Below are positions 3,001 through 6,000 of a stretch of DNA of 7,640 nucleotides, one piece after another. How positions within the stretch are numbered: the first letter of the stretch is position 1; each line of letters starts with the position of its first letter. The DNA comes from a virus (lineage: Duplodnaviria > Heunggongvirae > Uroviricota > Caudoviricetes), in IMG/VR virus record IMGVR_UViG_2703718860_000003, positions 1 through 7,640 of that record, one strand, 5' to 3'. The position numbers are program-made.

Positions 3001-6000
3001 TCCGTCAGGCTCCCTTATTCCGAACGCCCACCGCGTCCGTCCCGCACATTCCAGCAGCGCATCTGGAGGTAACGTGCGGGTATTACTTCGACCTGTTCTG
3101 GTACCGGAACTCGGGATGGTGCTCCTTAAGCCGGGCCGTGAATCAATGTCAGCATTCCATAACGGCAGAATATTGGTGGAGCCGGAACCGAAAAACATGC
3201 GCGGTCTGCCGTCCGGAGTCGTTCCTGCCGTTCGCCAGCCGCTGGCAGAGGATGAAACATTACTGCCATTTTTCAGCGATGAGCGGGTTGTTCGTGCAGC
3301 AGGTGGTGCAGGTGCACTGTCTGACTGGTTATTACGTCACGTGAAATCCTGCCAGTGGCCACACGGCGATTATCATCACAGCGAAACAGTCATTCACCGT
3401 TACGGTACCGGCGCGATGGTGTTGTGCTGGCACTGTGACAACCAGCTGCGCGACCAGACATCAGAATCACTCGATCAACTTGCTCAGCAGAATCTGGTTG
3501 CCTGGATGATTGACGTCATCCGTCACGCAATAAGCGGCACGCAGGAGAGGGAGTTATCACTGGCCGAATTATCCTGGTGGGCGGCCTGCAATCAGGTGGT
3601 GGATGCACTACCTGAGGCAGTAGCGCGTCGTTCGCTGGGATTACCGGTGGAAAAAATCCGCTCCGTATACCGTGAGAGTGACATCGTACCGGGAGAACAG
3701 ACAGCCATCAGCATACTGAAGCAGCGCACAAAAAATATTGCGCTGCCACTTCACGTCCACCAGCAACAAAATCCACCACAGAAAAAAACGGTTGTCAGTA
3801 TCGCCGTTGATCCGGAGTCTCCTGAATCGTTCATGAGGCGGCCTAAACGTCGCCGTTGGGTTAATGAGAAATACACGCGCTGGGTAAAGACACAGCCGTG
3901 TGCGTGTTGTGGTAAGCCTGCTGACGATCCGCATCACCTGATTGGTCATGGTCAGGGGGGAATGGGGACAAAGGCCCACGATATTTTCACGCTACCGTTG
4001 TGCCGGGAGCACCACAACGAACTTCATGCAGACCCGCTGGAGTTTGAGAAAAAGTACGGCTCTCAGATTGAGTTAATTTTTCGTTTTCTTGATCACGCCT
4101 TTGCGACTGGCGTGCTCGGGTAAAAGAGGTGACTGATGCTCATAGATTTGGTTTTACCTTACCCGCCGACGGTGAACACTTACTGGCGACGCCGTGGCAG
4201 CACATATTTTGTATCAAAAGCCGGGGAGCGTTATCGCCGTGCAGTGGCGCTTATTGTTCGCCAGCAGCGGCTGAAATTAAGCCTGTCCGGACGGCTGGCA
4301 ATAAAAATTATTGCAGAGCCACCGGATAAGCGTCGTCGTGACCTGGACAACATTCTGAAAGCACCGCTGGATGCGCTGACGCATGCGGGAGTGCTCATTG
4401 ATGACGAGCAGTTTGATGAAATCAATATTGTACGTGGTCAGCTTGTTCCTGGTGGTCGGCTGGGTGTGAAGATTTACAAAATTGAGAGTGAGTGAGCGTA
4501 AATATGATATATCCGGAAATTACAGGCAAAAGCGGCGAACATTTACGCCTGAACACGCTGGAAGCAGTCTGGATCCAGGGGAAATTACGGATGTGGGGGC
4601 GGTGGTCGTATATCGGTGGGGGTAAATCCGGAAATATGTTTAACCGGTTACTGGTTTCGAAAAAGCTGACGAAAACAGCAGTTAATGAAGTTTTACGCAG
4701 AATGAAGAAATCCGGGCTGGATAAACCGGAACTTGAGGCATTTTTTCGGGATATGACCAGAGGGAAGCAGAAGAGCTGGTTGTCACATTGTACAGACACA
4801 GAGGCGTTGATTATTGATCGCGTTATCAGTGAGGTGCTTGGGGAATATCCCGGACTAATCAATATTCTCCGGCAAAGGTACGAAGGACGGGGAATGAGCA
4901 AACTGAAAATGGCCGAAAGGTTAAATGCAGATCATCCTGAGTGGACGTTGGTTACGTGCAGACGCCGAATTGATCAGTGGTTGGGGATATCTGAATTTAT
5001 GTTACATGCCCCCATGCGTATGGCTTTTGTTACAGAGAAAAAAATGTTGCAAACTGATCAATAAACTGCTTCAATCCGTATAAGCTTCGCAAGGCTGTAT
5101 CGCGAGGCGAAACGCAAGTTTTTTCGCACAAGGAAGCCACCGGAAGGTGGTTTTTTTGTGTCCGTAATATACAGCAGCGCAATAAATTCGCTGGTGGTTA
5201 TTAATACCGTTCTTTCAGCTTGCTGGCTTTTTCGACAAGAGTTATTGGTGTGTCACGTTAACCGGAAAAGGGGAAAAGACATGCTGAAACAGCAGGATAT
5301 GACAGAAACCGCCAGAGTGGTGTTTAATGAATTAAGCGTCACCGAACCGGCGACAGTCGGGGAGATTGCGCAGAATACGTACCTTTCACGCGAACGCTGT
5401 CAGTTAATACTGACCCAGCTTGTTATGGCGGGTCTGGCAGACTATCAGTTCGGTTGTTACAGACGCCTTCAGTCCTGAAGGCTTTTTTATTTGTGGTAAA
5501 TGGGCGGCTGGTGGGTGTTAGGGGCACTCACCAGCCATCTGCTCATGCGTCCGGATCACAAGCAAACCTCAGGCCCACTGCTTTGCGCAAAAGCAGAATG
5601 AGCCTATCAGAGAAGTGCTTATTGATCTATGGCTAATACTGTAAAAATATCCAGTTGTGAGTTAATCAACGCCGACTGCCTGGAATTTATCCGGTCGTTA
5701 CCCGAAAATTCTGTTGACCTGATAGTCACGGATCCGCCGTACTTTAAAGTGAAGCCTGAGGGCTGGGATAACCAGTGGAAGGGCGACGATGATTACCTGA
5801 AGTGGCTGGACCAGTGTCTTGCGCAGTTCTGGCGGGTGCTGAAACCTGCCGGAAGTCTTTACCTGTTCTGTGGCCATCGCCTGGCATCTGATATCGAAAT
5901 CATGATGCGTGAACGCTTCAGTGTGCTGAACCATATTATCTGGGCAAAGCCGTCCGGACGCTGGAACGGGTGCAACAAGGAAAGCCTGAGGGCGTATTTC

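Follow-up and report, generated by a model that had tools for sequence, protein, structure and literature searches.

A predicted Q21-type late-gene switch, with a DUF1133 protein as candidate antiterminator, upstream of stx2 in a lambdoid prophage

Introduction

In phage lambda, the Q gene is followed by a constitutive promoter with a Q site in its spacer, a -10-like pause element near +1 and a short terminated leader (6S RNA, tR'), and the late genes are reached by processive read-through. In phage 21, whose annotated genome was used here as the reference, the late promoter has the -35 TTGACA, the Q-binding elements QBEu (ATTGAGCA) and QBEd (AATGAGCA) in the spacer and a start at A1263, followed by the pause element TAAGCTG, a terminator ending about 50 nt past the start, and then tRNA genes. 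Here, we analysed a stretch of 7,640 nucleotides of a Caudoviricetes virus (IMG/VR record IMGVR_UViG_2703718860_000003, positions 1 to 7,640; hereafter the window, to which all coordinates refer unless stated otherwise), which is the nin-to-stx2 part of a lambdoid stx2 prophage. The gene that follows rusA in the window encodes a DUF1133 family protein, and we propose that positions 4504-5157 very probably form a complete late-gene switch of the Q21 type, in which this protein would be the Q antiterminator of the phage.

Stx2 output of Escherichia coli strains that produce Shiga toxin hinges on the late promoter together with its antiterminator, and the type of Q serves as a marker for the level of toxin. 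In the non-O157 stx2 prophage group to which the window belongs, the Q gene is labelled just "DUF1133 family protein". Earlier surveys did not find a 933W-type pR' in some stx2 prophages (PMC6266700), and the Q type of the window is treated neither in Zhang et al. 2018, on pR' diversity, nor in Jobling & Holmes 2012. DUF1133 is listed, already flagged as Q-like, in a table of Pinto et al. 2021, and the Q-like call is thus not new at the annotation level; a full-text literature search for DUF1133 was empty despite this table, and such an empty result is no evidence of absence. The present analysis gives a base-resolution map of the predicted pR', Q site, pause element and tR' upstream of stx2, and links them to the solved Q21 mechanism.

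Results and Discussion

The gene after rusA is predicted to encode a distant relative of phage 21 Q

The open reading frame (ORF) in question lies on the + strand and runs from GTG 4492 or ATG 4504 to 5064. ATG 4504 is the true start, because the residues MIYP open all homologues, the 186-aa form is the one in RefSeq, and a Shine-Dalgarno-like GAG-rich stretch is present 8-13 nt 5' of this codon. In every phage examined, the DUF1133 gene is located at the end of the nin region, ahead of lysis, tRNA or toxin genes. The initial annotation, made from the sequence of the window, had correctly placed a gene at 4492/4504-5064 in the position of Q after rusA, and had described its product as a candidate antiterminator of unclear family without the Cys4 zinc finger of lambda Q; indeed, the protein contains two cysteines only (C96 and C152).

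Profile-HMM searches gave the protein a family. The Pfam model DUF1133 (PF06576) spans the whole protein (E 7e-104; positions 1-175 of the 176 in the model), and "DUF1133 family protein" is also the RefSeq product name. PF06530, the family of the Q proteins of phages 21 and 933W, matched residues 72-148 of the 190-aa translation from GTG 4492 with 33.5 bits (curated cut-off 26). The protein is assigned to PHROG 753, "anti-termination protein Q-like", and several GenBank phage records call its homologues "antitermination protein Q". No match at E 0.1 was obtained with the lambda Q family PF03589 or the Q82 family PF06323, and NCBIfam gave no model for the protein. Among proteins in the PDB, Q21 was the sole family matched, both by single-sequence phmmer (E 5e-5) and by a profile of 22 diverse DUF1133 proteins (E 2e-9), and hhalign aligned DUF1133 with Q21 over 134 columns at 96.8% probability (residues 14-178 against Q21 residues 6-152).

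The predicted structure points the same way. An AlphaFold2 model built on a shallow alignment of 35 sequences that were 71% identical or more had a predicted local distance difference test score (pLDDT) of 56.5 and was unusable, whereas with 113 sequences, the diversity of which came from a second protein search with a Providencia homologue, the C-terminal half was modelled at pLDDT 84-96. In a Foldseek search of the PDB, the top 11 matches were all Q21 (E 3e-5 to 3e-3, probability 1.00; template modelling score 0.61-0.72, normalised to the target), and the next match had an E-value of 0.8. The C-terminal half of the model shows the helical core resembling sigma region 4 and the helix-turn(loop)-helix of the Q21 reference structures (PDB 6P18, 6P19, 6P1A, 6JNX and 6JNY; Yin et al. 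2019; Shi et al. 2019).

Eight residues of Q21 contact DNA, namely S93, K94, H95, R113, A124, T125, R127 and R128 (Shi et al. 2019, PMC6606751). Five of them (S93 and K94 in H5, and T125, R127 and R128 in the recognition helix) are identical in the window protein, while A124 is replaced by V, H95 by L, and the loop that holds R113 is missing. The predicted recognition helix is V150-T-C-R-R-R155, whose codons lie about 100 bp ahead of the stop codon. The two proteins share only about 20-29% identity, and between H1 and H3 the DUF1133 proteins are longer by about 30 residues. Together, these profile and fold comparisons place the DUF1133 protein within the Q21 superfamily, on a divergent branch, as a distant relative of phage 21 Q.

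A candidate late promoter straddles the stop codon of the DUF1133 gene

DUF1133 loci were collected from phage records, from one genome per species and from viral contigs, which gave 70 non-identical cassettes from Escherichia to Edwardsiella. Nearly all 70 have a common layout across the stop codon: a TTGnnn -35, a spacer of 16-18 bp, a -10, the hexamer TA[ACGT]GCT and a terminator. The hexamer begins 5 nt past the -10 in nearly all cassettes from Enterobacteriaceae, and about 7 nt past it in the Providencia and Edwardsiella types. Some relatives have canonical promoters (TTGACT-16-TATAGT in Providencia, TTGACA-16-TAGTAT in Edwardsiella). When aligned with these cassettes and with phage 21, the window shows the following elements:

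4504-5064, + strand: gene of the predicted Q-type antiterminator, 186 aa, DUF1133/PF06576, Q21 superfamily (Pfam, PHROG, PDB, hhalign, Foldseek)
5047-5052, + strand: candidate pR' -35 TTGCAA, within the last codons of the Q gene; aligns with TTGACT, TTGACA and TTGATT of the 70 cassettes and with TTGACA of phage 21
5053-5060, + strand: candidate Q-binding half-site ACTGATCA, at the position of phage 21 QBEu
5067-5075, + strand: candidate extended -10 TG (5067-5068) and -10 TTCAAT (5070-5075); aligns with TATAGT (Providencia) and TAGTAT (Edwardsiella)
5080-5083, + strand: predicted start of transcription, A5080 on the phage 21 analogy or A5082 from the spacing to the -10
5081-5086, + strand: candidate sigma-dependent pause element (SDPE) TAAGCT, -10-like, in the initial transcribed region; identical to the annotated phage 21 SDPE
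5084-5108, + strand: leader hairpin 1, GCUUCGC/GCGAGGC, whose 5' arm begins inside the pause element (GCT)
5136-5157, + strand: T1, predicted tR', an intrinsic terminator with stem 5136-5141/5146-5151, a GGAA loop and seven T at 5151-5157

The spacer between -35 and -10 is 17 bp. From the first T of TGAKCA to the first T of TAAGCT, the distance is 26 bp in both phage 21 (1238 to 1264) and the window (5055 to 5081). In the 7.6-kb window, a single copy of the composite motif TGAKCM-N20-TANGCT is present, at the 5053-5086 cassette, against 0.021 expected from shuffled sequences. In terms of sequence, a promoter past the gene, a site in its spacer, a pause element and a terminator are all present, and a late promoter pR' that straddles the stop codon of the DUF1133 gene is supported. 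With phage 21 the window shares a homologous protein and fold, a promoter directly past the gene, a TGAGCA-like spacer site at QBEu, the pause hexamer TAAGCT at the same distance, a short leader with an intrinsic terminator, and tRNA genes downstream.

The initial annotation had offered two readings of this region, neither with a convincing -35/-10 pair. In the first, the late promoter lies in 5065-5130 and T1 is the late terminator; the promoter just past the gene, T1 and the short leader agree with our map, but the -35 and the half-site are within the last six codons (5047-5060) and the leader is about 76 nt rather than about 60 nt. The second reading is considered below, with the module downstream of T1.

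T1 is predicted to close a short structured leader

The leader (5082-5165) folds with -36.6 kcal/mol (z -4.1). In single-sequence folds, a hairpin occupies the slot of 5084-5108 in 10 of 11 lineages, with differing sequences (loci L003, L004, L005, L038 and L051 among them). No shared hairpin emerged when 21 leaders were analysed with RNAalifold, because the 3' arms differ in register among lineages; the leaders yielded no covariation statistic. This hairpin might limit backtracking, stabilise the 5' end of the RNA, or act as a pause hairpin. No known RNA family of Rfam was found in the leader or near T1 and T2; the best sub-threshold match, to the rpsB small RNA (sRNA) at 5163-5279, reached 21.5 bits against a cut-off of 40 and was taken as chance.

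The stem of T1 has 5-6 bp of G+C, with -10.3 kcal/mol, or -15.1 kcal/mol with an A/U extension. The consensus scan listed T1 on the - strand only, while a dedicated scan gave it on the + strand with its tail of seven T. Over the whole window, the terminator scan did not exceed chance (11 found, against 7.1 +/- 2.2 in shuffled sequences), but T1 stands above chance because its position is conserved: an intrinsic terminator follows the -10 in 62 of the 70 cassettes, 61 of which have it at 45-111 nt and most at 68-84 nt. The assignment of T1 as the tR' that closes a leader of about 76 nt, from 5080/5082 to 5151-5157, is therefore supported. Further downstream, two more intrinsic terminators would be the second and third barriers for late transcription:

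5465-5492, + strand: T2, over the stop codon of a small gene; hairpin 5465-5482 followed by TTTTTTATTT
6993-7016, + strand: T3, between the tRNA genes and stx2A; hairpin 6993-7010 followed by six T

The T2 hairpin has -9.1 to -10.5 kcal/mol, and that of T3, at -12.6 kcal/mol, is the strongest among the three. The initial annotation gave T1 and T2 at the right coordinates and did not list T3; its ranking of T2 above T1 is not borne out by the energies. Between T2 and the methyltransferase gene, a 14-bp hairpin at 5506-5537 has -25 kcal/mol with no T-run after it, and is not a terminator by the usual criteria.

Sister cassettes and other known late switches

The Rfam family isrK (RF01394) matched in full length directly 3' of DUF1133 genes with a TCRNR or TCCSR recognition helix in E. 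coli and Salmonella, with 67-76 bits against a cut-off of 50. The first base of the isrK model is the 7th nt past the aligned -10, which ends 6 nt before it; the 5' end of the Rfam model is taken to reflect the experimentally defined sRNA. According to Hershko-Shalev et al. 2016 (PMC4825925), IsrK of Gifsy-1 is a 77-nt RNA made from its own promoter and ending at an intrinsic terminator, with partial read-through; its immediate upstream neighbour is the gene of a "Q-like antiterminator", AntQ, whose expression interferes with termination, an effect rescued by Rho. Gene order suggests that AntQ is a DUF1133 protein. On this account, promoter and terminator are experimentally real in an isrK-type sister cassette, with the leader length that is predicted for the window, and IsrK appears to correspond to the pR' leader together with tR' in a cassette of the Q21 superfamily, a reading that is not made in the cited portion of the paper.

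On the same account, the window and the Gifsy-1 AntQ/IsrK locus are alike in layout and leader length. However, isrK-type cassettes are without TANGCT just past the -10, and what follows them downstream encodes a c4-like antisense RNA and an antirepressor instead of toxin or lysis genes. Window positions 5000-5560 gave no isrK match even at E 10, and the leader of the window is not an isrK homologue. Three loci with isrK matches after DUF1133 genes are L007 (2088-2164), L115 (2088-2164) and L009 (2088-2161), and isrK-type loci continue with matches to the P1/P7-type c4 antisense RNA and its a1b1 target.

With lambda the window shares the logic outlined in the Introduction but not the protein, since lambda Q belongs to the unrelated, zinc-finger-containing family PF03589. 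The Q proteins of 933W and Sp5 belong to PF06530 like Q21, but to another branch than the window protein. In 933W, Q-dependent transcription from pR' reportedly drives stx2, and the window Q is expected, by analogy, to play the same role.

Recognition helix and half-site vary together

Across the 70 cassettes, the 8-mer beside the -35 tracks the recognition helix T-C-x-x-R. The classes, named by the two variable residues, are as follows:

Helix RR (as in Q21): TGAGCA-like half-sites AGTGAGCA, AATGAGCA and ATTGAGCA; in the window ACTGATCA
Helix EK: half-site TTTACGCA
Helix ER: half-site TTGACGTA
Helix E followed by S, N or T: half-site GTTGCGCG
Helix Q followed by D or N: half-site TTT(A/G)CCGA
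Helix RN or CS: isrK-type spacer

The classes do not differ in the remainder of the spacer (AAAsTG plus the -10) or, within E. coli, in the leader. A natural exchange bears on this pairing. Viral contigs of the L081 type, an abundant recombinant, match the window at about 100% identity over 4455-4900 and from 5081 on, but at only 43-66% over 4905-5080. The swapped block thus comprises the C-terminal helix-turn-helix (HTH), the -35, the half-site and the -10, while the N-terminal domain, the pause element, the leader and T1 are untouched. This exchange fits a recognition pair of protein and DNA that moves together, and we regard it as supportive rather than as proof. In strains that carry many prophages, the helix-to-site table offers a prediction of the Q proteins by which stx2 could be cross-activated.

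The proposed switch and the evidence for and against it

We propose that the sigma-70 promoter pR' is presumably always active and, without Q, yields a leader of about 76 nt that ends at T1. After prophage induction, Q would accumulate and bind ACTGATCA between -35 and -10 through its C-terminal HTH (T151, R153 and R154). Sigma-70 would re-bind at TAAGCT, so that polymerase would pause within the first 15-20 nt, and Q would meet the paused polymerase, load and stay on. By analogy with Q21, the N-terminal part of Q would narrow the RNA exit channel and so block terminator hairpins, and the modified polymerase would pass T1, T2 and T3 to reach the methyltransferase gene, the tRNA genes, stx2AB, and the lysis and late genes. 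Sequence and fold comparison shows the homology and fold of the protein, and that the cis elements are present, suitably spaced and conserved; the steps from binding to pausing, loading and read-through of the terminators are inferred from phage 21, and a dependence of stx2 on such read-through is plausible. The core of the initial annotation, namely an antiterminator at the Q position, not lambda-Q-like, followed by terminators to be read through, is thus retained, and the locus would count among the ordinary late switches of lambdoid phages, being of the Q21 type and from a subfamily that has received little study.

Several observations weigh against this proposal. The N-terminal half of the AlphaFold2 model, the would-be nozzle part, is of low confidence (pLDDT 38-57). 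A consensus promoter scan found no promoter within 5040-5300, and the -10 TTCAAT is without the near-universal A at position 2; the scan and the initial annotation missed the promoter because of this and because it relies on the extended -10 TG. A start set by the -10 would put the pause element at -1 to +5, slightly upstream of the +2 to +7 of phage 21. DUF1133 proteins are without the 13-residue loop of Q21 in which R113 reads the minor groove. The window has one Q21-like half-site where phage 21 has the direct repeat QBEu/QBEd, with no counterpart of QBEd. Finally, the link between helix and 8-mer could partly reflect physical linkage, as the two are only about 100 bp apart.

Some of these points concern how Q would load. 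In Q21, two protomers occupy two directly repeated 8-bp subsites, an arrangement that the window does not have: in all helix classes, the position of QBEd is occupied by ATAAACTG, which includes the extended -10 TG. The single half-site and the missing R113 loop therefore suggest that loading may differ in detail from that of Q21. Furthermore, the -35 and -10 of the window are shifted by 2 bp relative to phage 21 in the frame from site to pause element. The terminator of phage 21 is the very hairpin that begins within the pause element, whereas the window has a separate hairpin there and T1 about 30 nt further on. A tentative extension, which we regard as possible but doubtful, is that DUF1133 antiterminators load differently from Q21 and form mutually insulated specificity classes. 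One protomer would then bind one 8-bp half-site beside the -35, without a minor-groove loop or a second subsite, and the conserved hairpin starting in the pause element might be a second determinant. Residues 153-154 (RR, EK, ER, E with S/N/T, Q with D/N, RN/CS) would set the half-site, and the block of helix plus site would be passed between prophages as a unit. If true, it would depend on the specificity class which of the Q proteins from co-resident prophages is able to turn on stx2.

An alternative that we consider unlikely is that the DUF1133 protein is an activator resembling sigma region 4, or a general DNA-binding regulator, and that T1 is only an attenuator or insulator. The Q21 fold does resemble sigma region 4 bound to an anti-sigma helix, the half-site adjoins the -35, where class II activators bind, and a promoter with so weak a -10 might need activation. 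Nevertheless, the terminator past the -10 is conserved in 62 of 70 cassettes, in 61 of them within the range given above, and a pause hexamer identical to that of phage 21 is kept at a fixed distance from the half-site; both are needed for Q loading and not for activation, and therefore argue against an activator. In PMC4825925, moreover, AntQ, presumably a DUF1133 member, interferes with termination when expressed, and IsrK is made without induction, so its promoter does not need the protein.

The second reading of the initial annotation, which put the late promoter between T1 and T2 (5158-5280), and under which T1 would end the early-right operon and T2 would be the terminator overcome by Q, is very improbable. 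This region offers 120 nt of non-coding DNA before the first gene that lies downstream, T2 has the structure of a clean terminator, and a weak promoter there would be compatible with the sequence. However, the consensus scan found no sigma-70-like site in 5158-5280, and the cassette of promoter, half-site and pause element is conserved upstream of T1 in all 70 relatives. The distribution of the flanking DNA is also informative. By megablast, the Q gene and 5065-5149 had no match in any deposited phage genome, while matches to many Stx2 phages, phiP27 and SfV begin at about 5149-5230 and continue downstream. Four phages with another gene upstream of this shared module (a 250-aa Q in SfV, quuQ in Stx2_EH1910, a 126-aa Q in Stx2_EH2201 and the unannotated gene L22 in phiP27) have their own promoter-like leader and terminator, and their similarity to the window starts right after the terminator. 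The lambda-type pause hexamer AACGAT is present in SfV and Stx2_EH1910 and absent from the window. As each Q type thus comes with its own pR'-leader-tR' unit, followed by the shared module, T1 fills the tR' slot. Positions 5158-5280 lie within the module, which is 94-96% identical among phages with lambda-type, quuD-type and other Q genes, and cannot carry a Q-specific site because the module is common to phages with unrelated Q.

That the locus is a decayed remnant, with a dead Q gene or site and stx2 expressed from its own promoter or by the Q of another prophage, is just as improbable: the half-site reads TGATCA where most relatives with the same helix have TGAGCA, and many E. coli genomes hold several related cassettes (up to 9 places per genome), but the ORF is intact, the exact protein sequence occurs on 999 or more contigs, all 8 non-identical window-type cassettes with the RR helix carry the ACTGATCA variant unchanged, and the C of the half-site, a base shown to matter in phage 21, is kept.

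Gene order and genomic context

The best matches to the window are chromosomes of non-O157 Shiga-toxin-producing E. coli. Around the predicted switch, the window carries the following genes:

3074-4123, + strand: DUF968/HNH gene
4136-4495, + strand: rusA
5281-5478, + strand: gene of a 65-aa winged-helix-like protein, the first after tR' (PHROG 331; weak TrmB/MarR matches)
5629-6687, + strand: N6/N4 DNA methyltransferase (Pfam PF01555, E 6e-44)
6728-6979, + strand: tRNA-Met(CAT), tRNA-Arg(TCG) and tRNA-Arg(TCT)
7072-7640, + strand: 5' part of stx2A (Stx2 A subunit annotated there in matching genomes)

The methyltransferase, tRNA and stx2 genes agree with those named downstream in the initial annotation. 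The 65-aa gene travels with the methyltransferase gene in SfV, phiP27 and many Stx2 phages, whatever the Q type. In FHI_NMBU_10 (L001, 10230-11278), the closest chromosomal match for 4400-5700, the methyltransferase gene is annotated as frameshifted and no stx follows, whereas the methyltransferase ORF of the window is intact.

A second Q site upstream of the methyltransferase gene, at 5599, was considered and rejected. At 5599-5634, TGAGCC-N23-TATGGCT with AAGTGCTTATTG between runs up to and across the methyltransferase start codon and is reminiscent of Klebsiella-type DUF1133 cassettes in its arrangement of half-site, -10 and pause element, but it follows a relaxed motif only, the spacing is wrong and no -35 lies at the right distance. 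The likeness is probably due to chance, because this stretch sits in the module common to phages with unrelated Q.

DUF1133 loci were also found on contigs labelled "Candidatus Nanosynbacter" (a metagenome-assembled genome) and "Vagococcus sp." (L013 and L030). These are implausible hosts for an enterobacterial prophage gene, and contamination or mis-binning is likely.

Upstream of the nin genes listed above, a hok/sok-type toxin-antitoxin locus is present at 2329-2631, with an Rfam sok match of 104.6 bits at 2329-2478 that overlaps a 70-aa mok/hok-like ORF at 2419-2631. In Rac-SA53, a hok/sok-type locus likewise lies upstream of the DUF1133 Q gene, at the same relative position.

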